From a virus: a stretch of 64,000 nucleotides of DNA. Location of the stretch: positions 1 to 64,000 of the IMG/VR virus record IMGVR_UViG_3300025141_013863; one strand, given 5' to 3'. The position numbers and the translations under genes are program-made. Below, one piece after another: positions 6,854-54,441 of this stretch; position 1 is the first letter of the stretch; every line of letters starts with the position of its first letter. Under the pieces are notes generated by a model that saw only the letters and a list, made by a program, of their open reading frames with translations, was not told the DNA's origin and ran no database searches.

Positions 6854-8143
6854 ATGACAGAAAAAAAGAAGATTTTGGTCTTATCCGACCATCCGCTATC
6901 GCCTTCAGGCGTTGGCACACAAACAAGGTATTTTATTGAAGCATTATTAAATACCGGCCAATATAGCTTTATTTGCTTAGGCGGAGCAATGAAACATAAA
7001 GACTATAGACCACAGAAAGTTGATCCGTGGGGTGAAGACTGGAGAATATTTCCGGTCGATGGATACGGAAATCATGAAATTATCCGCTCTATCCTACAAA
7101 AAGAAAAACCAGACGTTCTTTGGTTTATGACAGATCCAAGATTTTATGGCTGGCTGTGGGAGATTGAAAATGAAGTTCGATCGCATATTCCGATGGTATA
7201 TTATCATGTTTGGGATAACTGGCCTGCCCCAGTATATAATGGTTCGTTCTATCGTTCAACTGATGAGGTAGTGTGCATTTCGAAGGTTACTCATGATATC
7301 GTTAAAGATGTGGTGCCAGAAGTTTCATCTTGCTATCTGCCACATGCTGTAGATGATAATGTGTTTAAGAAATTTATCACAGAACAAGAAAAGCAACATT
7401 GCCAAGAAATAAGAGAAAAACTTCAGGTTGGCTCTAGTATAAACTTGAAGAATCCAAATAAAACGATTTTCTTTTGGAACAATAGAAACGCCCGCCGCAA
7501 GCAGAGCGGTACTTTAATTTGGTGGTTTAAGGAATTTCTTGACGAAGTAGGACACGACAAAGCAACGCTTTTGATGCACACAGACGCCAGGGATCCTCAT
7601 GGACAGGATCTACCTCATATTATAAATCATCTTGGTGTTAATGATGGGCAGGTTTTGCTTTCAACCGATAAGATTGACAGTAGGCAGTTGGCAGGAATGT
7701 ATAATGCCGCAGACTTTACAATTAATATATCTGATGCTGAAGGGTTTGGATTAGCCACTCTAGAATCATTATCTTGTGGCACGCCCATTATTGTAACAAT
7801 GACGGGCGGATTACAAGAACAGGTGACAGATGGAGATAATTGGTTTGGATGGGGTATCCAGCCAGCCAGTTCAGCAGTGATTGGATCCTTGCAAGTCCCT
7901 TATATTTATGAAGATAGAATATCACAGAAAGACTTTCATAAAACCCTTAAAAAGGCCCTTAATATCAGACCAAAGGCATATAAACAAATGTCAGACTTGG
8001 GGCAAAAACATGTACAACAAAACTATAGTTTTGCAAAATTTAATAAAAGTTGGGTTGAAAAGATGGACTCAATTGTTGAAAAGCATAGTTCTTGGGAGAA
8101 TAGAAAGGTTTATAAACGTTGGCATTTATTGGAGGTGGCATGA
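6854..8143 (+). CDS. glycosyltransferase GT4 (GT-B)
   Basis: SGVG acceptor loop, NRNARRK, YNAAD..EGFGLATLESLSCGTPII. Confidence 0.9.
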   Translation: MTEKKKILVLSDHPLSPSGVGTQTRYFIEALLNTGQYSFICLGGAMKHKDYRPQKVDPWGEDWRIFPVDGYGNHEIIRSILQKEKPDVLWFMTDPRFYGWLWEIENEVRSHIPMVYYHVWDNWPAPVYNGSFYRSTDEVVCISKVTHDIVKDVVPEVSSCYLPHAVDDNVFKKFITEQEKQHCQEIREKLQVGSSINLKNPNKTIFFWNNRNARRKQSGTLIWWFKEFLDEVGHDKATLLMHTDARDPHGQDLPHIINHLGVNDGQVLLSTDKIDSRQLAGMYNAADFTINISDAEGFGLATLESLSCGTPIIVTMTGGLQEQVTDGDNWFGWGIQPASSAVIGSLQVPYIYEDRISQKDFHKTLKKALNIRPKAYKQMSDLGQKHVQQNYSFAKFNKSWVEKMDSIVEKHSSWENRKVYKRWHLLEVA

Positions 8144-9399
8144 CAACAAAGTTATTTTTTAAAGGACCGTTATTGACTCGCTCTGGATATGGAGAACAGT
8201 CCAGATTTGCAATGCGAGCCATCCGATCGCGTCCGGATCTTTTTGATGTTTATATTCAGCCTCTTCAGTGGGGACAAACATCATGGATCAGCGAAGAAGA
8301 CGAAGAAAGAAGGTGGATTGATCAAGCAATTGAGAAGACAATAGCATATGCCCAGCAAGGCGGAAAATTTGATGCAAGTTTTCAAGTTACAATCCCCAAT
8401 GAATGGGAAATTTTGGCGCCAGTTAATATAGGATTTACAGCCGGAATGGAGACAACTAAGGTTGCACATCAATGGATTCACAAAGGAAACGAGATGGATA
8501 GAATTGTGGTTGTTTCAAATCATTCTAAAAAGATTTATGAAAATACCGTTTATATAGCCGGCTCCCAAAACTCAGATCAAGAATTTGAAGTCAGGCTAGA
8601 GACTGAGATTGATGCTGTAAATTATCCTGTTAAGGATTTTGGAGCATGCACTCAACTACCTCTAGAACTAGAATATGATTTTAACTTTCTCTCAATGGCT
8701 CAGTTTGGGCCTCGTAAAAATTTACCAAATACAATAAAATGGTTTATTGAAGAATTTCACGATGAAGAAGTGGGCCTTGTTTTAAAGTCAAATATAGCTA
8801 AGAATTGTTTAATGGATAGAGAAAAGTTATTTCACGATCTAAAGAATTTTACTGCAAATTATCCAAATAGAAAGTGTAAAGTTTATCTTCTCCATGGAGA
8901 CTTGGATGATAAAGAGATACACTCACTATTTGAACATCCGAAGATTAAAGCTTTTGTTAGTTTTACTCATGGAGAAGGTTTCGGCCTGCCGCTTTTTGAA
9001 GCAGCATATTCAGGCATGCCTATTGTTGTTCCTGGGTGGTCTGGACAATTAGATTTTCTAGTCAACAAAAACACAGGAAAGTCAGAATTTTACAGTGTAG
9101 AATATGATCTTCATCAGGTGCCAGATAGCGTTGTTTGGGAAGGTGTAATTATTAAAGAATCAATGTGGGCAAATAGTCGCGAACACTCTGCAAAACAAAA
9201 AATGCGAGAATGTTATTCAGATTTAACCTCAGAAAATTCAGCCACAGTGCTTCAAAGATTTTCCGATCACGCTAAAGTACTGCACGAAACGTTTTCAGAA
9301 GAAAAACAAAATGCATTAATGGTTGAATCTATTTGCAAAGCATTAAATATTGATACATCTGAAAAAAGTATAGACGATATAGTATTAGAATTTGATTAA
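8140..9399 (+). CDS. glycosyltransferase GT4 (GT-B)
   Basis: SGYG, PRKN, HGEGFGLPLFEAAYSGMPIV; GGAGG RBS and ATGA overlap favour start 8140. Confidence 0.88.
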   Translation: MTTKLFFKGPLLTRSGYGEQSRFAMRAIRSRPDLFDVYIQPLQWGQTSWISEEDEERRWIDQAIEKTIAYAQQGGKFDASFQVTIPNEWEILAPVNIGFTAGMETTKVAHQWIHKGNEMDRIVVVSNHSKKIYENTVYIAGSQNSDQEFEVRLETEIDAVNYPVKDFGACTQLPLELEYDFNFLSMAQFGPRKNLPNTIKWFIEEFHDEEVGLVLKSNIAKNCLMDREKLFHDLKNFTANYPNRKCKVYLLHGDLDDKEIHSLFEHPKIKAFVSFTHGEGFGLPLFEAAYSGMPIVVPGWSGQLDFLVNKNTGKSEFYSVEYDLHQVPDSVVWEGVIIKESMWANSREHSAKQKMRECYSDLTSENSATVLQRFSDHAKVLHETFSEEKQNALMVESICKALNIDTSEKSIDDIVLEFD

Positions 9400-11018
9400 T
9401 GAAAAAGATAGTTTTTATATCTGATTTTTTTGTTCACCAAATCGCCGGCGGCGGTGAAATATGCGACGATGTGCTTGTTTCAATGTTGTCTGAAGATGAT
9501 ACAAAGGTTATAAAACTAAATTCCCACACAGTAATAGATAAACATATTAAACTTTATCGTCAGTGTGGGTTTAAATTTTTAGTTTCTAACTTTTGCAATC
9601 TTAGAGAAGATGTAAAACAGGAATTAATAAAATATCCCGGAACATACTCTATTATGGAGCATGATCATAAATATTTACGCTCTAGAGATCCTTCTATTTT
9701 CAAAGATTTTATCGCTCCTCCAAATCAAATTATTAATCGTATGTTTTATACAAATGCAAAAGCTATTTTTGCACAGTCAAAATTACACAAAGAGGTTATT
9801 CAAAAGAATCTTAAGATTAATAATATAATAAGCCTTGGAATGAATCTCTGGACAGATCAACAACTAGCAATTATTGAAAAGAATATAGATAACGAGAAGA
9901 AGAATGATTTCGCAATTGTCAATAGTAAGAATCCTACAAAAAACACACAAGCTTGTGTGTCGTATTGCGTTGAAAAGAATTTGGACTATACCCTTGTTGG
10001 ATCACCAGACTACGCTGAATTTATCAAACAGCTCTCTTCTCATACGAGATATTTATACTTTCCAAAGGTATTAGAAACCTTCAATCGTGTCATAATTGAA
10101 GCACGAATGCTTAATTGCAAAGTAATAACAACTCAAAATAACGGATGTTTATCAGAAGACTGGTTTGCTAAATATAGAGGTAAAGAGCTTGTTGAGTTTG
10201 TTAGAGAACAGCGCCAAAGAGTATATAATGATATTAAAAACGCGATGTTTAAAGAGCAAAAATCTTTGCATGGCGATTCTGATATAACTGTTATTTTAAA
10301 TGCCTATAGGCGCCCATATAATCTTAAGATGCAGATCGAAGCGATTCGTAGCCAGACCATAAAACCAAAACAAATATGGTTATGGGTGAATGCACATGAA
10401 GACAATGAAGGGTTTGATTTTAAATCTCTAGGCGTTGATAGGATATTCCATAACGATTTTAATTGGAAGTTCTATGGAAGATTTGCTAGCGCCCTTTTGG
10501 CAGATACAGAATATCTTGCGCTATTTGATGACGATACCGTGCCCGGCTCAAAGTGGCTTGAAAATTGTATGAATACAATGCAGACAAACGAGGGTATTCT
10601 AGGATCCGCCGGCATAATACTAAATGATATATATTATATTAGGCACGACCGCTGTGGATGGCCAACACACAACCCAGAAGTCACAGAAGTCGACTTAGTT
10701 GGCCATGCGTGGTTTTTTAAGAGAGAATGGTTGCGTTATTTATGGCAAGAAAAGCCTACAACATGGAACAACGGTGAAGATATTCAATTTGCATTTATGG
10801 CAAAGATTCATGGAGGCATTCCTACATATTGCCCGCCACATCCTCCGGACGACAAGGAAATGCACGGATCAATATTAGGCAATGAGCTGGGGATTGATAA
10901 TAAGGCAACCTCCACCAACAGTAACGTGTCTCATAAACAATTTTTTTCTGAGCGAGATATGTGCGTGCAAGCTGGCTTAAGAAAAGGCTGGCAAACAGTT
11001 AGGAATATTAAATTATGA
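9399..11018 (+). CDS. two-domain glycosyltransferase (GT-B-like N-terminus fused to GT2/GT-A C-terminus)
   Basis: N-half GGGE and ETFNRVIIEARMLNC; C-half ITVILNAYRR and FDDD. Confidence 0.78.
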   Translation: MKKIVFISDFFVHQIAGGGEICDDVLVSMLSEDDTKVIKLNSHTVIDKHIKLYRQCGFKFLVSNFCNLREDVKQELIKYPGTYSIMEHDHKYLRSRDPSIFKDFIAPPNQIINRMFYTNAKAIFAQSKLHKEVIQKNLKINNIISLGMNLWTDQQLAIIEKNIDNEKKNDFAIVNSKNPTKNTQACVSYCVEKNLDYTLVGSPDYAEFIKQLSSHTRYLYFPKVLETFNRVIIEARMLNCKVITTQNNGCLSEDWFAKYRGKELVEFVREQRQRVYNDIKNAMFKEQKSLHGDSDITVILNAYRRPYNLKMQIEAIRSQTIKPKQIWLWVNAHEDNEGFDFKSLGVDRIFHNDFNWKFYGRFASALLADTEYLALFDDDTVPGSKWLENCMNTMQTNEGILGSAGIILNDIYYIRHDRCGWPTHNPEVTEVDLVGHAWFFKREWLRYLWQEKPTTWNNGEDIQFAFMAKIHGGIPTYCPPHPPDDKEMHGSILGNELGIDNKATSTNSNVSHKQFFSERDMCVQAGLRKGWQTVRNIKL

Positions 11019-11797
11019 AAGATTTTAATAAGGATTTTGACTCGGTTTTAGGATTAATTAAGACAAAACAACATTTTGCGTTTACCCGATTCTCTGACGG
11101 TGAATTATATATGATGCAAAATAGAAAGTTTAAGATCGAAAAGGATAAAGTTTTCCTTAGAGGAGATACACACAAAGGTGTCTGGGGCGAAGAAGAACTA
11201 AAAGAGTTTATTCCCGAAGAACAACAGATGCATAGAGAAAAGCTCATTAAGGCGTTCAAATTTAAGAAGCACAATTATATTAAAGGGATTAGTTGTAAAT
11301 GCTGTGTTGGGCCCGAAGATTGGAAATGGCAACAGCAATACGTTTTAGAAGACACACAACTTACTTGGGCCAACTTATTGATCAATGGAAACTATACAAG
11401 ATTTATAGAAGAGATGGTGCCTGAATTTGTTAAATATTCTGTGGTATATATTTGTAATAAATCTGCCAATATACAAAAGCTCCCCTTTGATGTTAAAAAG
11501 GTATTTAGAATTGGCAATAATTGTCATGTTAATGATCTTCATCTGATTGAAGAAGTTAAAAATTGGGTGAAGGACAATGATATTAAACATCATTTATTCT
11601 TGTTTTCTGCTGCAACTCTTACAAATTATATGATTCATGAATTGTATAAAGAGCATGATAAAAATACATATTTAGACATTGGGAGCACGCTTAATCCGCT
11701 TATGGATATGGACGGCTGGATCGCTTCTCGGGCCTATCTACGTGGCTATTGGATGAAGGAAAATAATCAATATATTGATATGAAATGCGTGTGGTGA
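11015..11797 (+). CDS. putative GT-D fold glycosyltransferase (DUF1792-like)
   Basis: FTRFSDGE motif and C-terminal YLDIGS. Confidence 0.65.
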   Translation: MKDFNKDFDSVLGLIKTKQHFAFTRFSDGELYMMQNRKFKIEKDKVFLRGDTHKGVWGEEELKEFIPEEQQMHREKLIKAFKFKKHNYIKGISCKCCVGPEDWKWQQQYVLEDTQLTWANLLINGNYTRFIEEMVPEFVKYSVVYICNKSANIQKLPFDVKKVFRIGNNCHVNDLHLIEEVKNWVKDNDIKHHLFLFSAATLTNYMIHELYKEHDKNTYLDIGSTLNPLMDMDGWIASRAYLRGYWMKENNQYIDMKCVW

Positions 11798-11798
11798 T

Positions 11799-12455
11799 AT
11801 GCAAGATATTTTATATATAATAACCGGCACTAGCCGTGGTATTGGATATGAGATAAAACAATTGTTATTGAAAGAGAAAATAGATATAATTTCATTAAAT
11901 CGTAAAAAATTTGATGAATATGATTATAAAATAGACCTTTCTCACATTGGAGAAGTGTATAAATTTTCGCATTACTTTAGAGAAAAAATTAAATCTGACT
12001 TTTCAAACCATACATTGGTTTTTATAAACAACGCATTTTCTTTAGGCCCGATCGGTAAAGTATCAGATTATAAAAACTATGAAATTGTTGATTCATTAAA
12101 TACAAATATATTTTCACCATTAATTTTATTAAAACTCTTGACAGAGCTGCCTAATAAGTTGTATATTATTAATATTACTTCGGGAGCAGCTCATAGTACG
12201 AACAAGCATCTTGGCCTCTATAGTTCAAGTAAATTATTTATTGAGAATTTTCTAAAGTTTATTGAAGTAGAAGACAACAATTGTTTAGAAACATATAATT
12301 TTGATCCTGGAATTACCAAAACAAGAATGTACGAGACACTTTCCGCAAGCGAAAAATTCGAAAATGAAAGCTTTAGTGATGCAATACCACTTGATCCGGC
12401 CTTTGTGGCAGCCCATTTATATAATATTATATCAAAAGAGTTGATTAATGATTAA
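11799..12455 (+). CDS. short-chain dehydrogenase/reductase
   Basis: TGTSRGIG, INNA, YSSSK catalytic motif, PG. Confidence 0.85.
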   Translation: MQDILYIITGTSRGIGYEIKQLLLKEKIDIISLNRKKFDEYDYKIDLSHIGEVYKFSHYFREKIKSDFSNHTLVFINNAFSLGPIGKVSDYKNYEIVDSLNTNIFSPLILLKLLTELPNKLYIINITSGAAHSTNKHLGLYSSSKLFIENFLKFIEVEDNNCLETYNFDPGITKTRMYETLSASEKFENESFSDAIPLDPAFVAAHLYNIISKELIND

Positions 12456-13416
12456 CGTTTTAGTTAGCGGCGTTGGAGGTGATGTAGGACAAGGAGTTAT
12501 CAGGTGTCTTAATAAATCTGATTTAGAATTGCGTATATTTAAAATTAGCTCAAGTGTTAATGATTCGTGGCTTTATCTTGATAATGATTGTTTTATTAGT
12601 CCTACAATTTACGAAGATTATATATCTTACTTAATTAAGTTTATTAATACTCATAAGATTGATATATTCTTTCCTTGCATAGATTTAGAAATACCCATAA
12701 TTTCAAAAAATAAAGACAAAATACAGTCTAAAACAAGTTGCAAAGTTTTTGTTGATGATTATCATAAAATTCAAATTTGTAACGACAAATATATGACAGC
12801 AAGATATCTAGAGGATTTTTCGTTATCATGCCCAGAAACAGATCTGATCACAACGATTGATCACAATAAGTTTCCTGTAATTATTAAGTCAAGAGAGGGT
12901 TGTGGCTCAAAAGATATTCACCTTATATATAGCAAAGAAGAGATAAGGCCATTTCTAAATAATAAAGACTATATTATTCAAGAATATTTAGATGGAGACG
13001 AATACACCGCTGGTGTTTATCTTGGAGAGGATAATAGAATAAAAGGCGTTTGCATTTTAAAAAGAACCCTCAAAGACGGCTCAACATATACTGCCGAACG
13101 TGTATTAGACTTGCAGCTGGAAGAAGAGATTGCAGCTATAGCTAGCCACGTCAGAATGAAATATTTAAATATTCAATTTAGATTAAAGAATGGAAAAGTT
13201 TGTCCTTTCGAACTAAATGGTCGTTTTTCCGGAACTACTGGTATTATTAGCAATGTTTTTAATGCACCAGAAATGGCAATCAAAGAACTTGTTTTAAAAA
13301 AAAATGTGTCTCCTTTCTTGCATAGTAAGAAATTTTATGTTATGAGATATTATGAAGAAATTTTTTCCACACAAGAGCAGCGAGAAGAACTTTTAAATAG
13401 GAGTAAGGATGATTGA
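12448..13416 (+). CDS. ATP-grasp ligase (polysaccharide-locus CarB-like type)
   Basis: DKY, PVIIKSREGCGS, IIQEYLDGDEYT, FELNGRFSG. Confidence 0.85.
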   Translation: MINVLVSGVGGDVGQGVIRCLNKSDLELRIFKISSSVNDSWLYLDNDCFISPTIYEDYISYLIKFINTHKIDIFFPCIDLEIPIISKNKDKIQSKTSCKVFVDDYHKIQICNDKYMTARYLEDFSLSCPETDLITTIDHNKFPVIIKSREGCGSKDIHLIYSKEEIRPFLNNKDYIIQEYLDGDEYTAGVYLGEDNRIKGVCILKRTLKDGSTYTAERVLDLQLEEEIAAIASHVRMKYLNIQFRLKNGKVCPFELNGRFSGTTGIISNVFNAPEMAIKELVLKKNVSPFLHSKKFYVMRYYEEIFSTQEQREELLNRSKDD

Positions 13417-15434: not shown

Positions 15435-15435
15435 T

Positions 15436-18247: not shown

Positions 18248-18255
18248 GAAAGAAA

Positions 18256-22154: not shown

Positions 22155-22159
22155 ATAAT

Positions 22160-23104: not shown

Positions 23105-23173
23105 CCAATGAGTTAAGACGAGAACTATTAGAAATTTTTAAAGAACCATGGTCAATACAATAAAGAGAAATAA

Positions 23174-25006: not shown

Positions 25007-25008
25007 AT

Positions 25009-41181: not shown

Positions 41182-41550
41182 ATGTCTTCTTTAGGTGTGG
41201 CCTTGCCACTGCGATTATCCGATGCTGATGGTTTTGTTATGATAAAGGGCTTTCGGCGCCTTGTCAGACAAAATTTAAAAATGTTAATTTTGACAATTCC
41301 TGGCGAAAGAGTTATGGAACCAGAGTATGGTGTTGGTATGAAAAAGTATCTATTTTCAAGCTTTCATCAAAATCTATATGGCGATCTAGAGAATAACATT
41401 AGGCGCCAAGTTAAGATATATATGCCGGCAGTCAAGATAGAAAATATAATTTTTAACTCGTCAGACCCGGATAATCAAACTTTGGGGATAACTATACGAT
41501 ATTCAATTCCACAAATATCGATAGATGATGCGCTGCAATTTACTATTTAA
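41182..41550 (+). CDS. baseplate wedge protein gp25/GPW-like
   Basis: QNLKMLILTIPGERVMEPEYGVG motif. Confidence 0.88.
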   Translation: MSSLGVALPLRLSDADGFVMIKGFRRLVRQNLKMLILTIPGERVMEPEYGVGMKKYLFSSFHQNLYGDLENNIRRQVKIYMPAVKIENIIFNSSDPDNQTLGITIRYSIPQISIDDALQFTI

Positions 41551-41565
41551 AATGAGGATTCTTTA

Positions 41566-45035: not shown

Positions 45036-48000
45036 AAAGCTTTTTGATTCGCAAAGATCAAAAAATTATTTATCTGAGACCGACGAAAGAGAGGCTTTCG
45101 CCGATATAGAGTCGTCCAGAAACATGAAGGCGATCTCAAAGAGGCAGAAGACTTTTGTTCCTCAAATAGATTATACAAAGCCTGAAAGATTTGCACGCTA
45201 CGGATCGGCATATCTTTATTATAAATCTGCTATTGAATGGATTCATGATTATTATCCATATGATGGTTCCGATGCAGAAATAAATGAATATAGAAATAAA
45301 CTATTAGATATCGAAAGGTATATATTTGATAATATCTATCCTCGTACAAACGGGTTTGTTACTTTTGCTAATCCTCATGATGGCGGCTGGGGCGGCACCA
45401 CTAATGATCCAGATGATTCTGATGGTTATGGAATTCCATCCACGCTAGAGTACATTACATTTAAAGGAGGGCCCGGCACTGGTTCCGCCGAAGATGGTGC
45501 ATTGTCTTCTCTTGTGCCCAATCCTTATAATGAAAAGATAAAACACGCCAACATATATGATGAAGATATCTACACAAATGCTGGCTTACCAGCAACTTAT
45601 GGATCGGGCTCTAGAGAGTCTAATCTTAAAGCTAATTTTAATACAGGCGTCACAGTTGAGTTTTGGTTAAAAACAGGCTCCGCTATTCCTCTAAGTACAC
45701 TGAATAACGAAACAGAAAAGCAAGTTATCTTTGATATGTGGAACAACAATGCCGACACTACGCATGATTATGGACGCATAACGATTGAGTTAAATGGGAC
45801 AGCTAGCAGCGGATCTCCATTTATAGTCACAGTCCAGTCTGGTAATGCTAACCCTGGAATTTTTCAACAATCAATCGGCGCCGACATAGATGTCGACACC
45901 CTTTCAAAATGGCATCATTATGCTTTTGTAATGGAGAATACTGGCAGCGGCCATGCTATTAAATTCTATGTAGACGGCGATTATAATGATGTACTGGCCC
46001 ATACTGGTTCTTTTGGAGAGTTGCCTCAAAAAGACATGATGGGGCGCCTTGGAGCACTCTTAACGACTCCTTCTGAAACAACCGCCACTGGCTCCCTTGC
46101 CGGCGCCGGAAAACTTTCTGGCTCTATGGATGAATTTCGATATTGGAAAGTCGCTAGAACTGCCAGAGAAATTGGTTTAAACTGGCTCGATCAAATTAGA
46201 GGCGGAGTAAACACAGATATTTCTAATACGACCCTTGGTGTCTATTATAAATTTAATGAGGGTATAACAACTGTAGCGGCCACCGATAGCGTTGTTCTGG
46301 ACTATGGAGGCCGCGTTTGCAATGGTGTTTGGACAGGCTACGGAAGTAATTCCCGCGCCACTGGCTCTGCGATGGTCTTGGCCAGCGGCTCGGCAATTTC
46401 ATCAGAATACAAAGATCCAATTATGTATTCAAACCACCCAGATGTGTCTGCATTAAAAACAGCTTTATTAAATAGTGGCTCCTATCACGATAGACAAAAC
46501 AACTCTTCTATGTTGAGCATGGCGCCTTCTTGGATTATCGAAGAAGACGAAGATCATGGTAGTGAATTTACTACAAATCTTCGATACGTATCTCATATTG
46601 TAGGAACATATTTCGATAAATTATACTTACAAATTCAGTCTCTTCCAAAATTTAAGCAAGCCGGATATACAAGCGCTTCATATACGCCATTTCCCTTTGC
46701 ACAGCATATGCCACAATCAATGGGGCTCGTCTCCCCGGAGCTGTTTATTGATGCATCTGTTATGGAGAAATTTCTCAATAGAAACCAGACCGGATCCTTT
46801 GAGGGCGACTTAGCAGAAACTAAGAATCTAATTTATCTCAATCTTTATAATAATATAACAAATATTTTTAAGAGCAAAGGTACTGAAAAATCAATTAGAA
46901 ATGTATTTAGGTGCTTTAATCTTGATGAGAGCTTGATCCGATTAAACGCATATGCCGATAATACAACATATTTGTTAAGAAACAATACCCTGCAGACTCT
47001 TATAAATAAAAATAGTATTAACTTTAATCAGAAGCAAAATACAAACGCCGTTATTTATCAGAAGCAATATACTGGCTCCGCGTATGAACCGGCCCCAAAT
47101 GATGTAATTGCTGATGATACCATAGGACATATTTCTGGTTCGTGGGGTATCGGCTATAATGCCACCAATGCTCCGGATGATAGGGGTATTGAAGATCCTT
47201 ATGGATTTACAATGGAAGCTGATATTACGTTTCCAACATTCTATAGAACCCAAGATAGATTTGATAGAAATTTTTTAACAGGCTCTTTGTTTGGGCTATA
47301 TACTGTTCCGTCCGGTGCTTCTGGTTATCCTCTTACTAGGATTAAAAACGGTACCGACACTACGTGGATAACAAGCCTTGGAAACAATGCAGCAGGAGAT
47401 TCCGAAAAAGGCCCAGACGCAGCAAACTTTCAAGTTTTTGCAATTAGAGATAGCGAATATTCAAAAAATATTCGGTTTATGATTTCTTCCTCTAATGAGC
47501 CGACCCCGATTCCGCTATTAACAAGTAGCACCTTTTATGATGTCTACTCAGATAGTCGTTGGAACCTTTCCGTTAGAATTGTTCCGTCCCTAACAAGCTC
47601 TTATGGTGCTGCCGGCATTGTTAGCGGCTCCCGAGAATCAGAAAGCAATTATGATCTGATCTTTAATGGCTATCATAATGAAGTTGGTACAATTCAGAAT
47701 AGTTTTAAGTTAACTGCATCGATAGACTATGATACTGCGGTAAACTTTTTAAATGCGGCCAAAAGGGTTTATGCCGGCGCCCGCCGAACAAATATAACTG
47801 GTGCTATTTTAAATCAAACAGATGTTAATATAAACTCTATAAAATATTGGACAAAATATATTGAAGATGGAGTATTAGAACAACACGCGAATGATCTTAC
47901 TAACGCCGGCATATCTGCATCGTACCAAAACACCTCCCCAAGAGATTTAAATAGTTTTGGCCACGATATTTTAAATTTAAATACTTTGGCTCTCCATTGG

Positions 48001-51000
48001 AACTTTGAAAATATAACAGGCTCAGATAGTAATGGTAATTTTTATATTACGGATATGAGTTCAGGCTCATCAGAGATAAGAGATAATTTTGGCTGGGCTG
48101 GCAACTGGGCAGGATATCAACATACTGGATATGGATTTGGGTTTAGTACCTCGTCCACCAACGTTGTTGAAAAAAATGCGATCAACTACTTTAAGTTTAT
48201 AGATCCAGAAAGAGTAGTTTCATCAGATATGGTCCAGATCTTGTCTAGTGATGATCGAGTTTTTGGCACAGATGATGTCGTTCCGGACTATTATTTCACA
48301 GTTGAAAAAAGCATGTATAATGCAATTTCAGAAGAAATTCTTGACTTCTTTGCTGGGGTTGTAGACTTTAATAATATTATTGGCGAGGCCGTTAATAGAT
48401 ATCGCCATAGATATAAATCACTAGAAAAACTCCGAGAGATTTTCTTCAGGAAAGTGTCGAACACCAAGGATGTAGAAAAGTTTGTTGATTATTATAAGTG
48501 GTTTGATGACTCTTTAACAACAATTATATCGCAATTGATCCCGGCATCGGCTGATTTTGAAAACGACATGATGAATATTATTGAAAGCCACGTGCTTGAA
48601 AGAAATAAGTATCAAACTAAATTTCCAACATTCGATTTTAAAGAGCCAGATTTAGATTTTGCCATGAAAGGGGCAAAAGAAAGCTCGTATTCGTGGAAAG
48701 ATGGTAGCTCTACAATTCCGGCTTCTCCTCGTTCTACAAAAAAGAATAGACTATATTGGGATCGACGCGCTGAAAGATCCGCAACAGAGTTATCCTCCAG
48801 TCGCTCAACTAACTCTCCCACGGTTAATTCAACTATTGACGGGCAGAGAGAAAAGTTTAAAACGATTATATATTCTAATCCACATATGAGCCAAAGTACG
48901 CGCCTTTCCTATACTAGCACTGGTACATCATATGATATTGGAGCCCACCGAAGTCGTAGTTATGGAGGCCTCTATAATCTTCAATACGATAGTTATATAG
49001 GTTCCGGCAGTACCATTAAAGGCGGCACGAACTTCACAGATAATAAAAATATTGATTTTACATATAATGCACTTCGTCCTGCAGGTCCAGTTAATAATGA
49101 CGGCACCATATTTGTTCCTCAAAATGTTATTTTGGGATTTGCCAATGACTTGGTTGAACTGCATGAAACTCACCAATGGGAGACTGATAAGTATCCAAGA
49201 ATATTAACTAAAAGATATCTAAAAACTCTCCACGGAAGAAACTTTGAGTACGATGGAACCGGATATAGTAATGTTAAATCTTCCTTCGCATTTCCTTTTA
49301 ATATTGTAAGTTCTTCAATAAAAAGTGGATACAACAAAGTTGTAACCGATAGAGTTACCGGAGGTATTGAAATTGTTAACTTGCATCATGATACTTATGG
49401 AGATTCTTTTGAGATTCCAATGCAGGGCCCATTTACCAATACTCATGTTGGGGGCCACCAATCACGCCACATTGCAATAAATACAGGTTCAGATCAGTGG
49501 TATAACCGTCCGGAAGCATGGAAGATACTTCTTGGAACTAGTGATCTTGGAACACATAATTTAACAGGCGCAATCGGCATGGTGGGCCCAGATTATCCGT
49601 GGCCCGAGGCCAACGAAAGAGGCGGCTCGTCTCCAGGCGCTTGGATCTCACCATACCCAATGACAGCTTCTCACAAGGCTTGGCTGTATAGAGGCATGGT
49701 CGCGAAGAGTCCAGTAAACATTAGGAACATATTAACTACAACTGGATCCAGGGTACTTGGAAATTATCAGAGAAATTACGAAATAGTACAGTCGGTTGGT
49801 GCATATGAAAATGCTAGAGCATTTATTGAAGAACAGCCCACCTTGCCATCTACGGTATACTTGAGCCATTCGGGCAGCACCACAAACGTAAGAACGTTAT
49901 TAGATCTCCGTCGTGAGTCTGGAAGTCATTTCAAGTTTGTAGATGAATATAACGCTGGTTATTTAACGGGTACCGAAAACAAATCAATTATGCTATCTAG
50001 ATTTGCTGCTCCTGGTGGCATAGAAGTGATGGGTCGAGGCTATTTAGATTTTAGAGCTTCAGAATATTCTGTTTATAATTCATTATTGAATAGAAACTTG
50101 ACAGTTATCAAGCCCTCTCAGGGCCCAACTGGTTCGTATTCTGAACTTGTTGGCTCGGGTACTGCGGGAATTCGAGTATTCGATATTCATGGAAAAGATT
50201 TTGGATTGCGCTCACACTTGGCAAGACATAGTGCCAGATTTGGTAGAGATTCCATGTTTGTTACTTCTTCGAATGATATGCCCGGCGCCTCCTATGACCA
50301 GCTTCCATCTTTTCATAAGCTTAATAGAAATCGAAGAGCAGTAATAAAAATAACCAATGCCGGCGACATCTTTAGTCCAAAGACGATAACAACCGCGACG
50401 GCCTCGAAATACGATAACTATTATGTGTCCTACCCCATCCCCAGATCGGACAGACAATATTCGTGGGTTACTGGCTCAATTACTGGCTCAGATATAAGAT
50501 TTTATGGCCATGCCCGAATACATGGCGAGCAAGCAGGTTTGTTTTCTAGTTCTGCTAATGGTTATGTTGCTTATTTTGATTATGTGAGTGCCAGTTCTGT
50601 TGTGCCACAACTTACACAAAGTTTATACCAGCCGACAACAAGATTAAATATTTTAACACACGATCCTTTAACTGCCTCTGGCGACAACAACACGCTTGGA
50701 CATGCAACAACAATTGATTACGATGAGTATTTTAATAAAACAATTGTAGATAGATTCCAGATCGAAAACTTCCTTACGACATCCGCGAATTACTTTAACT
50801 TGCTGATGACAAGGCGTGGTGGTACTTTTGGTTGGAACTGGAAGAGGTTAAGGATTCAAGATCACCCAATCTTAGTTGATCAATATTTAAGTAGTACTTT
50901 TACGCGTGCCGCCATTACTGATGATGATGTCACAACGTATAGTCTCCCACCTGTGTCCATGAGAGGCCGTCCTCTCCTTATTAATTATAGCCAGGATGAT

Positions 51001-54000
51001 TCAGATACAACACTCAAAATTACTCACAACAATGAAAAGATTTATTTTAACAGCACGACTTTAAATGATGAGCTAGGCTTGCCTAATATGGAAACTGTTA
51101 CTGCGTATGATCAAGTTTTATCGATTATACAGTCGGCCGATTATTCATTAAATTGGATTATGTATTGCGAAAATGTTTTCCCATCTTTAAGAAACGAATT
51201 TGTTTCCTCGTCTCGCGAAAGAATTGGTTTTGATAATAAATTTTGGAGAGATGCATCAATAGATCGCTTGGCGGTTGGAAATGCTTTGAAAAATTCCTTT
51301 GGTGTAAGGTCTCCCGCTGTTTCACAAAGTTGTTGGCCCTTAGACGCGCCGGCTAATTTCTTGACGCGCTCAAAAGTGCCAAATGTTGGAACTGGCGGCG
51401 GCGATCATGATTTCTTTGAAGAGGGTCAAGCAGGAGAGCTTCAAAATACTTATTTTGCATATCACACAGGCGCCGCCAAGACCAGCGATGAAGTGTTTAC
51501 TTTCATGGCCCCCGCCGCCCTTTACGCCAGAAAACACACTCTTAGTTCACCATTTTCGGTGGCATCTCCATCAGGAATGGATATTCCAGAAACAGGAAGT
51601 ATTTCAATTGGAGTTCCATTTTGGAAAGGCAGCTCGCAGATTGATATTTATGCAGGCGAAGCAGTATGGGAAGCCGGCTCACAAGCTGGAATTGTTACAG
51701 TTTCTGGTTCTACCTCAATTTTTCAAGCGACCGCTTCTATTCCCTGGTTCAACGATTATGATGATTATAAAGAAGACTTATTATTGTTGGCTCGCGACTA
51801 CTCCATTATTCCAGAATTTAGGATTAGTGAACATATCGAAGATTACATAAAGTATGGCTTGGCATCAAAAAATAAATCAAACACTTTCGAGATTCCAGGG
51901 ACATCAATCAACAGCTCGACAAGTTCTTTTTATGTAGATTATTCTAATTCTGAGTTTATGACAGAATTTCTCAACATTAAGCAAGATTCATTGCTTGATG
52001 CAACAGAAATTAGATTAGTATGTAGCGCTGCAATTAGATTTAATCCGTATAAAGGGTTTTATCCCGCACAAAGAACTTTAGATCTAGTCTCACAGTTTTC
52101 TCGTTCTTATGGCGATGGATTGTTTGCGTCCAAGAAGGGCGACGGTACACAATTTTCAGTCGCCGGCGAAGAGCTTATCAAGAACAGGCCGGGCTTATTG
52201 AGGCCTTTGATGACGACACTATATTCTCCAGGTATTTTATTCAACAGTATTAAATCTGGACTGGCAGTTAATTATCCAGGAATAACTGATACTAGAAAAT
52301 TAAGTGCATCATATTATGGTAAATCAAAATTAGAAAATACAGAAAATTGGATGATCACGCCGGCCCTCCCTCCCAATAGTACAAAAGTTGGATATCGCGG
52401 CGGAGAGTTCTGGGACATTAAAGTTCCTTTCGAGGCCATCTTAGCCCCAGAAAAATATATTGCAGGGATACAATTTTTGGATATAGAGCCCCACCCCTCT
52501 TGTTCTCTGAATGCAACTGCTTCTTTGGGAGCGGCAAGTGATGAAATTTATTCTATGATGGCCAGTAATTTTCTCGGAGAAGTTGGGTCTTTCTTCTTGA
52601 AAGATAATATGTTTACACAGCTTGCCTCTGAGCCAGTTACAGATGATCTAAGATTTACATCCGGTAGCGTTTATGGGGCTAGAATAAAGTTAAGAAGATC
52701 TGTGTCGGGCTCTAGAGGTTATCTTCTAGAATCTGGCTCTGTTGGAGGAAGCGATCCATATGATCTAACAGGTGGTAGAATTTATGATTCAACTTTGGGG
52801 GCATATCAAAACGGTGCCTTTCCAATACCACAAGATCCAAGAGCAACTAACAAATCTTTTCAAGAAAGTTTTACAATGTATTCTCGCCCCTCCGCCTTCG
52901 GTCCTCCCGTTGCCGGCCAACCGGATTCAACAGGATCGAAAGACTCAGTTGTCTTAGCTTCAGATCCATTAGATAGTGTAAATGGGTATTATTGGTCATT
53001 CACCCCTCCATATTACAATGGTGAAGCTTGGTGCGATGTAATTTTTAGACCGGATAGTACGAAAAGCTATGATTTAGAACAAATATTAGCTGAGGCCTCT
53101 TTGGTATATTGGCGAGCTGATCCTGGGATTGGCACAGGTAGTGCTGGCTATTTGGGCTCTAATCCTGTTTTAATCTCCTCTTTTGGTTCTGCCTCATTTA
53201 CAAATGCTGATAATTATATTTATTCTGGACACAATGTTAATGCAAACGCTATGCAAATCAGCGCCAGCATTAATTTGCTTGGTGTTGAAAGGGTCTTGCA
53301 GCAAGAAGAAGATAAGTTTGGAAACAAGATCAAAGGCACAAATATTACCGCAGCAAAACGTTGGGTAATTCAGCCAAAATGGGAAACCCCAATGCTCAAT
53401 TTTGGTAATCAAGGGGTGCACCCAATAACCGAAAATGATGGTAACTTAACATTGCCTGATTATGGAAAAGCATCAGTGCCAAGAGGGATGTGGCATCAAT
53501 TTGGTATAATGCCAGAATCGCCAGATAAAGGAATTTTCTTAGAAATTGGAGATATTCCAAAGGATTGGTTAAAAAATCATTACGATGTATTAACAAACGA
53601 TACCGTTTATAATAATGATGATGCTGATACCGGCGACAAGGTATTTAAAGAAATGCAATCTTTAACAGATCTGGCAGGCTTTAAATCATCAACGTCAAAG
53701 CGCTTAGGAGAAATAGCAGAAAGTAAAATTATCAGGGAAGCAGTTGTGGCGGTTCCTTATGTAATACAGAATGAAGCAGGCATATCTAACGAGGCTAGCG
53801 CACTTACATCGACCATGAAGTCTCTTATAAGCATTCCAAAACAGAGATATGAAGCTGCCATGTCTAGTGCTAAGGGAACGGCGGAAGGTGATTCATTAGA
53901 TGCCGCTGGAGAGTCAATAAGAAAGCTAGTTCAAAAAATGGAAAGGTACGTTTTGCCACCTCAGTTTGACTTCCTAACTAATCCAGATGTTGATCCGGTT

Positions 54001-54441
54001 GTTATGTATATTTTTGAATTTAAGTATATTTTAGATCAAAATGATCTATCGTATATATGGCAGAATTTAGCGCCAAGAGATTATAAAAAAATATCCTTTC
54101 AATATGAATCAGTTGCACATGAGCTTATGGACACTGAATTGCTGACGGAGGCAAACTTAGTAGATAATGAAAACTTAAGATGGATGGTCTTTAAAGTAAA
54201 ACAGCGTTCCGGCACTCACTATTATGATCTAACGACTGCTCAAGCAGGCCAAGCCTCAAAAGATGTATTTAGCTTTGATGATGATACTTCTGGATACAAG
54301 CTTGGATTCAATTGGCCTTATGATTATTTATCTTTTGTTGAGCTAATTAAGATGGATGCGGAAGTTCTTTTTAAATCATCTGACGATACAGATACCACAA
54401 ATGGCTCAACTGATGTATATGGCGAACTGGAGAGCGAATAA
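45025..54441 (+). CDS. giant (3138 aa) baseplate protein: gp7/gpI-like core plus LamG domains
   Basis: LamG motifs TVEFWLK, WHHYAFV, FYVDG, MDEFRYW; gp7/gpI-like NIFKSKGTEKSIRNVFRCF. Confidence 0.7.
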   Translation: MSIKKLFDSQRSKNYLSETDEREAFADIESSRNMKAISKRQKTFVPQIDYTKPERFARYGSAYLYYKSAIEWIHDYYPYDGSDAEINEYRNKLLDIERYIFDNIYPRTNGFVTFANPHDGGWGGTTNDPDDSDGYGIPSTLEYITFKGGPGTGSAEDGALSSLVPNPYNEKIKHANIYDEDIYTNAGLPATYGSGSRESNLKANFNTGVTVEFWLKTGSAIPLSTLNNETEKQVIFDMWNNNADTTHDYGRITIELNGTASSGSPFIVTVQSGNANPGIFQQSIGADIDVDTLSKWHHYAFVMENTGSGHAIKFYVDGDYNDVLAHTGSFGELPQKDMMGRLGALLTTPSETTATGSLAGAGKLSGSMDEFRYWKVARTAREIGLNWLDQIRGGVNTDISNTTLGVYYKFNEGITTVAATDSVVLDYGGRVCNGVWTGYGSNSRATGSAMVLASGSAISSEYKDPIMYSNHPDVSALKTALLNSGSYHDRQNNSSMLSMAPSWIIEEDEDHGSEFTTNLRYVSHIVGTYFDKLYLQIQSLPKFKQAGYTSASYTPFPFAQHMPQSMGLVSPELFIDASVMEKFLNRNQTGSFEGDLAETKNLIYLNLYNNITNIFKSKGTEKSIRNVFRCFNLDESLIRLNAYADNTTYLLRNNTLQTLINKNSINFNQKQNTNAVIYQKQYTGSAYEPAPNDVIADDTIGHISGSWGIGYNATNAPDDRGIEDPYGFTMEADITFPTFYRTQDRFDRNFLTGSLFGLYTVPSGASGYPLTRIKNGTDTTWITSLGNNAAGDSEKGPDAANFQVFAIRDSEYSKNIRFMISSSNEPTPIPLLTSSTFYDVYSDSRWNLSVRIVPSLTSSYGAAGIVSGSRESESNYDLIFNGYHNEVGTIQNSFKLTASIDYDTAVNFLNAAKRVYAGARRTNITGAILNQTDVNINSIKYWTKYIEDGVLEQHANDLTNAGISASYQNTSPRDLNSFGHDILNLNTLALHWNFENITGSDSNGNFYITDMSSGSSEIRDNFGWAGNWAGYQHTGYGFGFSTSSTNVVEKNAINYFKFIDPERVVSSDMVQILSSDDRVFGTDDVVPDYYFTVEKSMYNAISEEILDFFAGVVDFNNIIGEAVNRYRHRYKSLEKLREIFFRKVSNTKDVEKFVDYYKWFDDSLTTIISQLIPASADFENDMMNIIESHVLERNKYQTKFPTFDFKEPDLDFAMKGAKESSYSWKDGSSTIPASPRSTKKNRLYWDRRAERSATELSSSRSTNSPTVNSTIDGQREKFKTIIYSNPHMSQSTRLSYTSTGTSYDIGAHRSRSYGGLYNLQYDSYIGSGSTIKGGTNFTDNKNIDFTYNALRPAGPVNNDGTIFVPQNVILGFANDLVELHETHQWETDKYPRILTKRYLKTLHGRNFEYDGTGYSNVKSSFAFPFNIVSSSIKSGYNKVVTDRVTGGIEIVNLHHDTYGDSFEIPMQGPFTNTHVGGHQSRHIAINTGSDQWYNRPEAWKILLGTSDLGTHNLTGAIGMVGPDYPWPEANERGGSSPGAWISPYPMTASHKAWLYRGMVAKSPVNIRNILTTTGSRVLGNYQRNYEIVQSVGAYENARAFIEEQPTLPSTVYLSHSGSTTNVRTLLDLRRESGSHFKFVDEYNAGYLTGTENKSIMLSRFAAPGGIEVMGRGYLDFRASEYSVYNSLLNRNLTVIKPSQGPTGSYSELVGSGTAGIRVFDIHGKDFGLRSHLARHSARFGRDSMFVTSSNDMPGASYDQLPSFHKLNRNRRAVIKITNAGDIFSPKTITTATASKYDNYYVSYPIPRSDRQYSWVTGSITGSDIRFYGHARIHGEQAGLFSSSANGYVAYFDYVSASSVVPQLTQSLYQPTTRLNILTHDPLTASGDNNTLGHATTIDYDEYFNKTIVDRFQIENFLTTSANYFNLLMTRRGGTFGWNWKRLRIQDHPILVDQYLSSTFTRAAITDDDVTTYSLPPVSMRGRPLLINYSQDDSDTTLKITHNNEKIYFNSTTLNDELGLPNMETVTAYDQVLSIIQSADYSLNWIMYCENVFPSLRNEFVSSSRERIGFDNKFWRDASIDRLAVGNALKNSFGVRSPAVSQSCWPLDAPANFLTRSKVPNVGTGGGDHDFFEEGQAGELQNTYFAYHTGAAKTSDEVFTFMAPAALYARKHTLSSPFSVASPSGMDIPETGSISIGVPFWKGSSQIDIYAGEAVWEAGSQAGIVTVSGSTSIFQATASIPWFNDYDDYKEDLLLLARDYSIIPEFRISEHIEDYIKYGLASKNKSNTFEIPGTSINSSTSSFYVDYSNSEFMTEFLNIKQDSLLDATEIRLVCSAAIRFNPYKGFYPAQRTLDLVSQFSRSYGDGLFASKKGDGTQFSVAGEELIKNRPGLLRPLMTTLYSPGILFNSIKSGLAVNYPGITDTRKLSASYYGKSKLENTENWMITPALPPNSTKVGYRGGEFWDIKVPFEAILAPEKYIAGIQFLDIEPHPSCSLNATASLGAASDEIYSMMASNFLGEVGSFFLKDNMFTQLASEPVTDDLRFTSGSVYGARIKLRRSVSGSRGYLLESGSVGGSDPYDLTGGRIYDSTLGAYQNGAFPIPQDPRATNKSFQESFTMYSRPSAFGPPVAGQPDSTGSKDSVVLASDPLDSVNGYYWSFTPPYYNGEAWCDVIFRPDSTKSYDLEQILAEASLVYWRADPGIGTGSAGYLGSNPVLISSFGSASFTNADNYIYSGHNVNANAMQISASINLLGVERVLQQEEDKFGNKIKGTNITAAKRWVIQPKWETPMLNFGNQGVHPITENDGNLTLPDYGKASVPRGMWHQFGIMPESPDKGIFLEIGDIPKDWLKNHYDVLTNDTVYNNDDADTGDKVFKEMQSLTDLAGFKSSTSKRLGEIAESKIIREAVVAVPYVIQNEAGISNEASALTSTMKSLISIPKQRYEAAMSSAKGTAEGDSLDAAGESIRKLVQKMERYVLPPQFDFLTNPDVDPVVMYIFEFKYILDQNDLSYIWQNLAPRDYKKISFQYESVAHELMDTELLTEANLVDNENLRWMVFKVKQRSGTHYYDLTTAQAGQASKDVFSFDDDTSGYKLGFNWPYDYLSFVELIKMDAEVLFKSSDDTDTTNGSTDVYGELESE

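Follow-up and report, generated by a model that had tools for sequence, protein, structure and literature searches.

The IMG/VR virus record IMGVR_UViG_3300025141_013863 contains, within its first 64,000 nucleotides (hereafter the window), a glycan island at 6854-30178 that consists of 26 tightly packed plus-strand genes, six of them glycosyltransferase-like (GT), together with nucleotide-sugar enzymes. This island is built from a lineage-conserved head of soluble GT-B glycosyltransferases (two GT4 genes and the N-terminal part of gene 3), followed by a swappable cassette. In the same phage lineage the tripeptide [ST]GS, i.e. serine or threonine followed by glycine and serine, is enriched six- to sevenfold in peripheral baseplate and fibre proteins, and not elsewhere. 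The best-supported explanation, to which we give slightly less than even chances, is that the phage O-glycosylates its own tail proteins in the cytoplasm. For this proposal we infer the protein acceptor, the role of [ST]GS as the site and the identity of the priming enzyme from sequence. A glycan assembled in the cytoplasm on virion proteins had already been suggested in a preliminary description of this DNA; that reading stands as the best supported one, but the direct arguments given for it were weak, and the one based on N-glycosylation sequons was wrong (see below).

The window is the first 64 kb of a 90,332-bp record whose CheckV completeness is 49%, the record being about half of a roughly 185-kb marine myovirus of the type named "Far-T4" (PMC4360716, PMC7198788). 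All long open reading frames (ORFs) in the window lie on the plus strand, and the G+C content ranges from 31 to 47%, mostly about 37%. The part of the record that lies past the window carries genes for a primase, an Mre11-Rad50 fusion, a tubulin homologue and the T4-type large terminase and portal. Membership in Far-T4 is indicated by the portal (PF07230, 9e-75), the large terminase subunit (TerL, PF03237) and a Gp23 family match in three complete relatives (G001-G003), which we compared with this record by BLASTP. Wedge proteins with 43-67% identity occur on more than 80 IMG/VR contigs, several of which are complete genomes of 185-203 kb. The closest cultured phages, by portal and gp6-like wedge, are Mel-JY01 (from Microcystis) and immuto (from Flavobacterium), accompanied by the uncultured 484-kb genome LR756508, with identities of 28-39%; the Rhodothermus phage RM378 is an additional near relative by its portal only, within the same identity range. 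Marine Far-T4 members have predicted Bacteroidetes hosts (PMC7198788), and neither of the two Far-T4 papers (PMC4360716, PMC7198788) mentions glycosyltransferases or sugars.

The features of the island are the following, with gene families assigned by Pfam and NCBIfam (SDR, short-chain dehydrogenase/reductase; PLP, pyridoxal phosphate; NDP, nucleoside diphosphate; aa, amino acids):

6854..8143, plus strand: first GT4, a soluble GT-B enzyme (PF00534 1.4e-11, PF13692, PF20706 3.4e-10), EX7E motif intact
8119..9399, plus strand: second GT4, a soluble GT-B enzyme (PF00534 1.6e-6), EX7E kept
9399..11018, plus strand: gene 3, a 539-aa fusion with a C-terminal GT2 (GT-A) domain (PF00535, residues 297-419)
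11015..20646, plus strand: variable cassette, part 1 (Pfam, NCBIfam), each gene found in 0-9 of 59 related loci
11799, plus strand: SDR of the adh_short family (Pfam)
14095-14706, plus strand: short DegT-like PLP gene, 203 aa (Pfam)
15436, plus strand: GT11 (Pfam, 2.5e-25)
16323, 17318, 18229 and 29219, plus strand: four NDP-sugar SDRs (Pfam)
19207, plus strand: CgeB-like Glyco_trans_1_2 (Pfam, 6e-8)
20616..27111, plus strand: variable cassette, part 2 (Pfam, NCBIfam)
25924, plus strand: RfbH/PseC-like PLP enzyme of DegT type (Pfam; NCBIfam RfbH, 5.5e-59)
27111..30178, plus strand: variable cassette, part 3 (Pfam, NCBIfam)
27111, 28129 and 28518, plus strand: HldE-like kinase half, adenylyltransferase half and phosphatase (NCBIfam)

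Neighbouring genes of the island overlap or are less than 10 nt apart, with the exception of gaps of 69 nt (23105-23173) and 172 nt (30179-30350). On its left the island is bordered by a PD-(D/E)XK nuclease gene and on its right by a weak gp55-like late-sigma gene, after which the baseplate genes follow. The coupled operon of about 25 glycan genes announced in the preliminary description is therefore confirmed in both size (26 genes) and content, since its two GT4 enzymes, GT11, CgeB-like transferase, four NDP-sugar SDRs, two PLP enzymes, heptose module and methyltransferases all have Pfam or NCBIfam matches. In a Kyte-Doolittle hydropathy scan the island's glycosyltransferases all lacked transmembrane segments, in agreement with the earlier statement that none has a clear membrane anchor. 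Two other assignments held only in part. In the supposed GT-B/GT-A fusion (gene 3) the C-terminal GT2 domain is real, while the N-terminal half has no Pfam match, its only lead coming from neighbouring Atlas clusters, where 18-65% of the members contain PF00534. The N-terminal stretch of about 285 aa is 27-41% identical to stand-alone genes of about 283 aa in the three complete relatives, and probably represents a virus-specific, GT-B-like family. The GT-D-like gene at 11015 has a weak match (E = 5e-4, 19.9 bits) that lies below the cut-off of 27.

Both lead enzymes exceed the Glycos_transf_1 cut-off of 26.4 bits (44.7 bits for the first GT4 and 28.2 for the second) and fit CAZy family GT4, i.e. 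retaining enzymes of GT-B fold. Behind gene 3, part 1 of the cassette contains, in this order, the weak GT-D-like gene, an SDR, an ATP-grasp protein, a HAD protein, the short DegT-like gene, a DUF268 methyltransferase, GT11, three NDP-sugar SDRs, the CgeB-like GT and a 137-aa ORF. One of the three extended SDRs of this part is most similar to GDP-L-fucose synthase (272 bits, below cut-off). The short DegT-like gene aligns with Pfam in two stretches, the better of which covers profile positions 23-93 of 360, and is probably a functional short form rather than a pseudogene, because all three complete relatives have homologues of 197-213 aa (37-43% identity), each adjoining an SDR gene. Part 2 encodes a B12-radical-SAM (S-adenosylmethionine) enzyme, PanB (4e-99), a thiamine diphosphate (ThDP)-dependent enzyme resembling acetolactate synthase (ALS) and YerE, a Methyltransf_24 protein and the RfbH/PseC-like enzyme. 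In NCBIfam the last of these matches RfbH (5.5e-59) and the ThDP enzyme matches the acetolactate synthase large subunit (3.4e-109, below cut-off); as judged from these families, part 2 is a candidate tailoring block for a branched or deoxy sugar. Part 3 encodes an HldE-like heptose kinase, an Mpo1-like protein, a heptose-1-P adenylyltransferase-like protein, a capsule-type HAD phosphatase, a cupin and an SDR resembling dTDP-glucose-4,6-dehydratase. The Mpo1-like (DUF962) protein, 95 aa long and encoded at 27845-28132 (1.3e-30), sits between the two HldE-like halves. Methyltransferases of the island are the DUF268 and Methyltransf_24 proteins and the B12-radical-SAM enzyme. Altogether, the predicted chemistry of the cassette would include fucose-type, 3,6-dideoxy or branched hexose-type and heptose-type sugars with methyl and amino decorations, and possibly also amide-linked groups and sulfate.

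When 59 IMG/VR loci with at least 9 kb of sequence downstream of the first GT4 were compared, both GT4 genes were present in all 59 and gene 3 in 42. Identity with the three complete relatives is 69-73% for the first GT4, 54-62% for the second and 27-41% for the N-terminal half of gene 3. The flanks in these relatives are conserved as well, with PhoH and the nuclease before the lead transferases and a Zn-ribbon protein, the gp55-like protein and the baseplate genes after the island. A tblastn search of the first GT4 against 50,697 phage records returned eight matches, namely four immuto isolates, Mel-JY01, RM378, LR756508 and, weakly (23% identity, 2e-11), the Pontimonas phage phiPsal1. Immuto and Mel-JY01, which infect Bacteroidota and Cyanobacteria respectively, both show an annotated PD-(D/E)XK nuclease, two consecutive GT genes and a small cassette (GT2, aminotransferases, methyltransferases) in this order, and in Mel-JY01 a GuaB gene sits between the nuclease and the first GT. 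LR756508 has a weak nuclease homologue (21%) ahead of its first GT4, and RM378 has just two GT genes, located amid replication genes after a gene annotated as "similar to DNA polymerase I". The second GT4 has orthologues in immuto (1e-49) and Mel-JY01 (2e-46), and none was detected in RM378 or LR756508. In an alignment of the marine clade, immuto and Mel-JY01 the EX7E motif is invariant in the first GT4 and kept in the second, so that both enzymes look active; in RM378 the second GT gene has lost the second glutamate of the motif. Homologues of the first GT4 number more than 7,900 in metagenomes, and the top 120 of them are 73-100% identical and derive in many cases from Tara and JGI samples. 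A sequence search of the PDB with this protein yielded generic GT4 matches (BshA, chlorovirus B736L), and the same search returned nothing significant for the second GT4 or for gene 3.

The cassette behaves very differently from the head. Each cassette gene of the window was found in 0-16 of the 59 loci. Out of 559 ORFs downstream of the head in these loci, which form 197 families, none belongs to a family present in at least 80% of the loci, and 175 of the families occur in at most 10%. The genes between 11 and 30 kb have almost no counterparts in the three complete relatives, each of which possesses its own, different sugar block of 13-14 kb, and a block homologous to part 3 is found only in G003 among them. 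It should be noted that this contrast with the upstream region is one of degree only, because the 10 kb upstream of the first GT4 are also mosaic and fairly variable (115 families, three of them in at least 80% of loci). A Pfam census of the cassettes in the complete relatives recorded epimerases, dehydratases, DegT enzymes, cupins, methyltransferases, GT2, GT6, GT11, GlmS-like and radical-SAM/SPASM proteins, as well as CTP_transf_3, a cytidylyltransferase family of the CMP-sugar type. Two MptE-like genes (DUF115, the family of the Maf flagellin glycosyltransferases) are present in the cassette of one relative; we read them and the cytidylyltransferase family as nonulosonic-acid genes and count them in favour of protein glycosylation. 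One of these cassettes (L123-L125) also holds a gene that matches the catalytic domain of the RuBisCO large subunit (PF00016, 1.4e-34).

The structural genes to the right of the island include the proteins in which [ST]GS was counted (observed versus expected numbers are given throughout):

34530..41159, plus strand: 2209-aa virion protein, serving as internal control ([ST]GS 1 versus 1.2)
41182..43362, plus strand: gp25-like and gp6-like proteins of the inner baseplate wedge (phrog_261 4e-18; phrog_6 and phrog_219 about 1e-16)
43362..45035, plus strand: 557-aa beta-sandwich baseplate protein ([ST]GS 6 versus 1.1), a candidate glycosylation substrate
45025..54441, plus strand: 3138-aa giant baseplate/fibre protein with LamG (PF13385) and 33 [ST]GS, a candidate glycosylation substrate

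In the 3138-aa protein the 33 [ST]GS tripeptides compare with 4.6 expected (z = 14.7), and when the sequence was shuffled in blocks of 10 residues 5.6 were expected, with a maximum of 13 in 500 shuffles (z = 12.4). TGS (18 versus 1.9, p = 2e-12) and SGS (15 versus 2.6, p = 1e-7) rank as the top two in an unbiased scan of all tripeptides of this protein. Controls for residue order and identity gave [ST]SG 4, G[ST]S 7, [ST]GT 4, [ST]GA 4, AGS 1, NGS 1 and PGS 0. Pooling the structural proteins encoded at 43362-66690, we counted 56 [ST]GS in 7,736 aa, and in the operon enzymes 2 in 7,783 aa; the other motif-rich proteins of the record are those at 64205 (7 motifs) and 65362 (3) and a 165-aa protein at 87362 (3). 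A DNA-level artefact can be dismissed, since the 46 motifs examined use 38 different 9-mers and codon usage is thus too diverse for a DNA motif. Nor is the tripeptide a by-product of local composition or tandem domains, as it survives block shuffling, its flanks have no consensus and a single LamG domain contains 6-8 motifs. The motifs S-[GA]-x-T and G-x-T were not enriched in the proteins of this phage. The preliminary description had called the baseplate proteins "sequon-rich", which is not the case for N-x-S/T: we found 34 versus 35.9 in the 3138-aa protein, 4 versus 5.4 in the 557-aa protein and 10 versus 6.0 in the gp6-like protein, and in the 2209-aa protein this sequon is depleted (4 versus 13.2).

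The same distribution of [ST]GS is seen among homologues. The 557-aa family has 358 motifs versus 56.9 expected (n = 54), with 2-11 per protein and seven hot-spot sites that are filled in 50-81% of 42 homologues. In the giant protein of the three complete relatives there are 12, 21 and 23 motifs versus 3-5 expected, some sites being common to all four genomes and many having been gained here where the relatives read TSS, TAS or SGT. The counts for the relatives' inner and control proteins are 35 versus 49.6 in the 2209-aa family (58 homologues), 0 versus 5.5 for gp25-like (n = 80), 7 versus 29.9 for gp6-like (n = 72) and 0 versus 8.9 for a 360-aa protein. Mel-JY01 has enriched tail proteins, in two of which SGS and TGS are the top tripeptides, and several tail proteins of immuto are enriched, one of them partly through tandem repeats. 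RM378 is weakly enriched (10 versus 1.5 over three adjacent tail genes). Enrichment is thus strong in the phages with a clear orthologue of the second GT4 (marine clade, immuto, Mel-JY01) and weak in those without one (RM378, LR756508). It is not a general trait of T4-like tails or of giant baseplate proteins, as the structural proteins of T4 have 2 versus 7.2, a 4449-aa protein of Atu_ph07 has 3 versus 3.6 and a 3342-aa protein of PHA46 has 0 versus 2.0. An AlphaFold2 (AF2) model of the 557-aa protein (predicted local distance difference test, pLDDT, 69; predicted template modelling score, pTM, 0.68) consists of beta structure throughout and places the motifs in loops or at strand ends. A fold search with this model retrieved generic beta-sandwich, carbohydrate-binding module (CBM) and macroglobulin domains only.

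Genes for lipid-carrier and export steps were looked for by family searches, in which most bacterial control genomes did give matches. Polysacc_synt (the Wzx family) had no match in 26 related records, of which eight reach 90% completeness or more, Wzy_C (polymerase/ligase) none in 14, and Bac_transf (WbaP-type) and Glycos_transf_4 (WecA-type) none in 15, again including eight that are at least 90% complete. The earlier statement that no flippase (Wzx), polymerase (Wzy) or undecaprenyl priming transferase is recognisable therefore holds for the record, and Wzx, Wzy and WecA- or WbaP-type genes are missing from eight near-complete relatives as well. By hydropathy the coding strand of the 90-kb record encodes no polytopic protein, and neither the record nor the relatives examined have a polytopic protein that belongs to a glycan-related family. 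Polytopic proteins of the relatives (883 aa with nine hydrophobic segments, 317 aa and 698 aa) were considered as exporters and set aside, as they fall in no glycan-related family; one is weakly PHO4-like. A weakly PHO4-like membrane protein with five segments, encoded in G001 at 20325-21278 (L104:325-1275; 4.9e-5, below cut-off), could be an auxiliary gene for phosphate uptake. The check for DNA-modification genes recommended in the preliminary description was negative for the ThyA-type hydroxymethylase (PF00303) in 15 records, eight at least 90% complete, and for C5 DNA methyltransferase (PF00145) in five. Tet/JBP (PF12851) had no match in five records and likewise none in the control genomes. 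In the 90,332-base record (about 37% G+C) GGCGCC occurs 84 times and GCCGGC 76 times, with about 4 of each expected; the cyanobacterial HIP1 sequence GCGATCGC has 3 copies.

Around the island, the following additional features were recorded:

708..1382, plus strand: sulfotransferase-like gene (PF03567 1.3e-10)
1675..2190, plus strand: cytidylyltransferase-like gene (PF01467 5.2e-11), 63-71% identical in G001-G003
6031..6059, plus strand: sigma-70-type promoter TTGACA-17-TATAAT, matching the consensus at 12 of 12 positions
6082..6846, plus strand: PD-(D/E)XK nuclease (PF12705 3.8e-18), in 55 of 59 related loci
30950..31651, plus strand: weak gp55-like late sigma factor (phrog_234 E = 0.002; no Pfam match), 66-85% identical in G001-G003
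31938..33164, plus strand: M23 peptidase (PF01551 9.6e-23, PHROG matches)

The promoter at 6031-6059, a consensus match ahead of the nuclease gene, is the only strong promoter-like site that precedes the operon and overlaps 6042-6081, the sole intergenic gap ahead of that gene. Since it is of the early type, adjacency to late genes is not evidence for late co-regulation. The T4-type late promoter TATAAATA has 11 matches versus 9.4 expected, none ahead of operon genes, and is uninformative on timing. Of the claim that the operon lies directly upstream of a late sigma factor and baseplate genes, the baseplate part holds and the identity of the sigma factor is weak. Downstream of the island come, in turn, a Zn-ribbon protein, the weak late-sigma-like protein, the M23 peptidase, which is probably a tail lysin, and the 2209-aa, gp25-like, gp6-like, 557-aa and 3138-aa proteins. 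The sulfotransferase-like gene may be part of the glycan toolkit; LR756508 has two ORFs homologous to it at a distance of about 7 kb from its orthologue of the first GT4.

Under the explanation that we favour, the conserved transferases would act in the cytoplasm and start O-linked glycans on the Ser/Thr of [ST]-G-S loops, the acceptors being the 557-aa and 3138-aa proteins and the proteins encoded at 64205 and 65362, shortly past the end of the window. The cassette enzymes would set the outer, strain-specific part of the glycan, so that related phages would differ in a tail "glycotype", and lipid carrier, flippase and polymerase would be unnecessary. Conservation of the lead transferases over phages of Flavobacterium, Rhodothermus and Microcystis, whose envelopes are unrelated, points to an acceptor that the phage itself encodes. 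Taken together, a host-independent transferase pair, the absence of carrier, export and DNA-handle genes and a lineage-specific tripeptide at the exposed periphery of the tail point more specifically to a phage-encoded protein acceptor in the cytoplasm. That [ST]GS is the O-glycosylation sequon is a narrower claim, which we regard as doubtful, and we hold just as tentatively the joint proposal of an [ST]GS sequon, a priming GT4 pair and a hypervariable cassette of about 200 families that gives each strain its tail glycotype. Several observations weigh against protein glycosylation. The association between transferases and motif is a trait shared within a single clade, and as such counts for little more than one evolutionary observation; LR756508 has the first GT4 and is barely enriched in [ST]GS. 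At the hot spots the first residue and the glycine are better conserved than the final serine, and the tripeptide may instead shape a turn in the structure or carry some other modification. Enrichment in the major capsid protein is mild at best (3 versus 0.7 in G001). The first GT4 has no similarity to mycobacteriophage virion transferases by tblastn at E <= 1e-5, the only strong operon promoter is sigma-70-like, of early type and shared with the nuclease gene, and the gene content is indistinguishable from that of an O-antigen or capsule locus, whose transferases are soluble too. For every member of the lineage the support consists of genes and sequence statistics.

This last resemblance suggests a different explanation, in which the soluble transferases extend undecaprenyl-linked intermediates of the host and the host machinery exports a product resembling O-antigen, capsule or lipopolysaccharide (LPS), thereby altering the surface of the infected cell, e.g. 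for superinfection exclusion or for evading grazers or other phages. Transferases that work on undecaprenyl-linked acceptors are normally soluble or peripheral, as is usual in lipid-linked assembly, and a lytic phage could borrow the priming transferase, flippase and ligase of its host; for these two reasons the argument from absent membrane anchors and export genes made in the preliminary description is weak. The enzyme families (GT4, GT2, GT11, RfbH-, RmlB-, Fcl- and HldE-like proteins, capsule-type phosphatase) are those of O-antigen and capsule loci, the hypervariability is typical of surface-polysaccharide loci, the promoter is of early type, and similar gene sets of large cyanomyoviruses have been interpreted in this way, though by interpretation rather than experiment (PMC12801897). 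Nevertheless, we consider envelope remodelling unlikely, as the lead transferases are kept even though host phyla and envelopes differ between the phages, none of the eight near-complete genomes has a gene for a priming transferase, flippase, polymerase or ligase, the borrowed Wzx/Wzy would have to accept some 200 families' worth of glycans, and the enrichment of [ST]GS in the tail is left unexplained.

Two further acceptors have to be considered, DNA and molecules other than DNA, envelope or virion. The transferases and cassette might glycosylate bases of the phage DNA against host nucleases, in the manner of T-even phages and of the systems described by Pyle et al. 2024. It would fit such a role that the GT pair lies beside an annotated PD-(D/E)XK nuclease (marine clade, immuto, Mel-JY01) or amid replication genes (RM378), that the sigma-70-type promoter is an early one, that the first GT4 passes the cut-off of PF20706, "GT4 in conflict systems", and that the excess of GGCGCC (84) and GCCGGC (76) could mark modified or protected sites. 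DNA glycosylation is made less likely by the failure to find a ThyA-type pyrimidine hydroxymethylase (0 of 15 records) or a C5 DNA methyltransferase (0 of five), and as more than 20 rare-sugar genes with at least four extra transferases far exceed known DNA glycans, and the tail motif would again have no explanation, we give it only a slim chance. The glycan might otherwise be placed on a soluble or secreted glycoconjugate, a small molecule, or a host pilin, flagellin, S-layer or gliding-motility adhesin, in which case [ST]GS would have a structural role unconnected with the glycan or would carry a different modification. The sequence itself does not name the acceptor, and tailoring enzymes of natural-product type are present (B12-radical-SAM, ThDP carboligase, PanB, ATP-grasp, methyltransferases), but neither the 90 kb nor the relatives contain a polyketide synthase (PKS), a non-ribosomal peptide synthetase (NRPS), an aglycone pathway or an exporter, and conservation of the lead transferases across host phyla disfavours a host-specific protein target, which makes this possibility rather improbable in our opinion.

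To our knowledge, virus-encoded virion glycosylation is established only in giant viruses and a few mycobacteriophages. Among these, the closest analogue of the proposed system would be that of the Megavirinae, which glycosylate their virion fibrils by means of clade-specific clusters of 6-33 genes (Notaro et al. 2022, PMC10117803). The likeness lies in contiguous virus-encoded rare-sugar pathways and transferases (26 genes here), in content that is specific to a clade or strain, in the absence of lipid-carrier machinery and in an external virion structure as the target, which is a proposal in our case. The Megavirinae are eukaryotic giant viruses whose glycans have been shown chemically, whereas here we deal with a tailed phage known from its genes alone, in which a conserved GT pair heads the cassette and a candidate tripeptide acceptor motif is present. 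The mycobacteriophages Che8, Corndog and Myrna O-glycosylate structural proteins with their own transferases (Freeman et al. 2023, as summarised in PMC12619734 and PMC12801897). The mechanism that we propose would share with them soluble phage transferases and the cytoplasmic O-glycosylation of the phage's own structural proteins; as far as these summaries describe them, the mycobacteriophage systems comprise one to few transferases, use host sugars and modify the C-termini of capsid or tail-tube proteins, in contrast to about 20 sugar-pathway genes here and to [ST]GS sites scattered over the candidate targets, which are peripheral baseplate and fibre proteins.

Large sugar-gene sets are already known in marine myoviruses, just as virion glycosylation is in mycobacteriophages and giant viruses. 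The cyanophages P-SSM2, S-SCSM1 and S-SCSM2R have "cell-wall/LPS" sets with up to 13 GTs and NDP-sugar epimerases (PMC12801897). They are, like the present phage, large marine myoviruses with GT11 and GT2 in variable regions, and in both cases the target is a proposal; unlike it, they belong to the Cyano-T4 lineage and their sets are read as host-surface modification. Neither a conserved lead GT pair nor a tail-protein motif has been reported for these cyanophages, and in the searchable Far-T4 literature we found no description of a conserved GT head, a hypervariable cassette or a tail tripeptide. With bacterial O-antigen and capsule loci of the Wzx/Wzy type the island shares enzyme families and hypervariable mosaic cassettes, but here, and in the near-complete relatives tested, the phosphoglycosyl transferase, flippase, polymerase, chain-length regulator and ligase are missing.

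Serine-rich-repeat adhesins provide a bacterial precedent, in which GtfA/GtfB, Gtf3 and the GT-D-fold enzyme dGT1 O-glycosylate the Ser/Thr residues of a surface fibre step by step in the cytoplasm. As in that system, an adjacent GT4-type pair is followed by further GT-B, GT-D and GT2 enzymes, with the differences that the candidate acceptors are dispersed tripeptides rather than Ser-rich repeats and that the GT-D match is below threshold. Both enzymes keep the EX7E motif in immuto, Mel-JY01 and the marine clade, which rules out a GtfA/GtfB-type pair of one active and one inactive GT4, and GtfA was not among the matches of the PDB sequence search.

If the proposal is correct, the island would be the first glycosylation system of tailed phages that is at once large, self-sufficient and hypervariable, and the tail glycotype would be the phage counterpart of bacterial serotypes. 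Host range, stability, and escape from defence or grazing would then be encoded partly in sugars and not in protein sequence alone, and [ST]GS would be a candidate O-glycosylation sequon of the bacterial world with a possible use in glyco-engineering. Far-T4 phages are globally abundant and among the most widespread aquatic myoviruses, and their cassettes are a source of unusual-sugar enzymes, such as those for ThDP-dependent, B12-radical-SAM and PanB-type steps. With three relatives in culture (immuto, Mel-JY01 and RM378), the question is directly testable.

Some minor observations concern the flanks of the island and the remainder of the record. Two adjacent tRNA genes, Thr(TGT) at 3326-3401 and Gly(GCC) at 3403-3477, read ACA and GGC/GGU. 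These codons are among those that specify the T and the G of TGS, which may be a coincidence. In two relatives a glutamine-synthetase-like gene (PF00120, PF03951) that the window does not contain is located between the nuclease and the first GT4 (L123:783-1901 in G001 and L124:914-1900 in G002). The largest gaps after the operon, at 30179-30350 and 33165-33435, each start with a ribosome-binding site (RBS) and ATG and hold short unannotated ORFs. Past the window, a 914-aa ORF at 83904-86648 of the record is inserted amid conserved head-morphogenesis genes and had no Pfam or PHROG match and no BLASTP match in the three complete relatives. The tubulin/FtsZ-family gene at 72797-73936 of the record (PF00091, 1.2e-8), also past the window, is 86-95% identical in these relatives and ranks among the most conserved genes of the clade.

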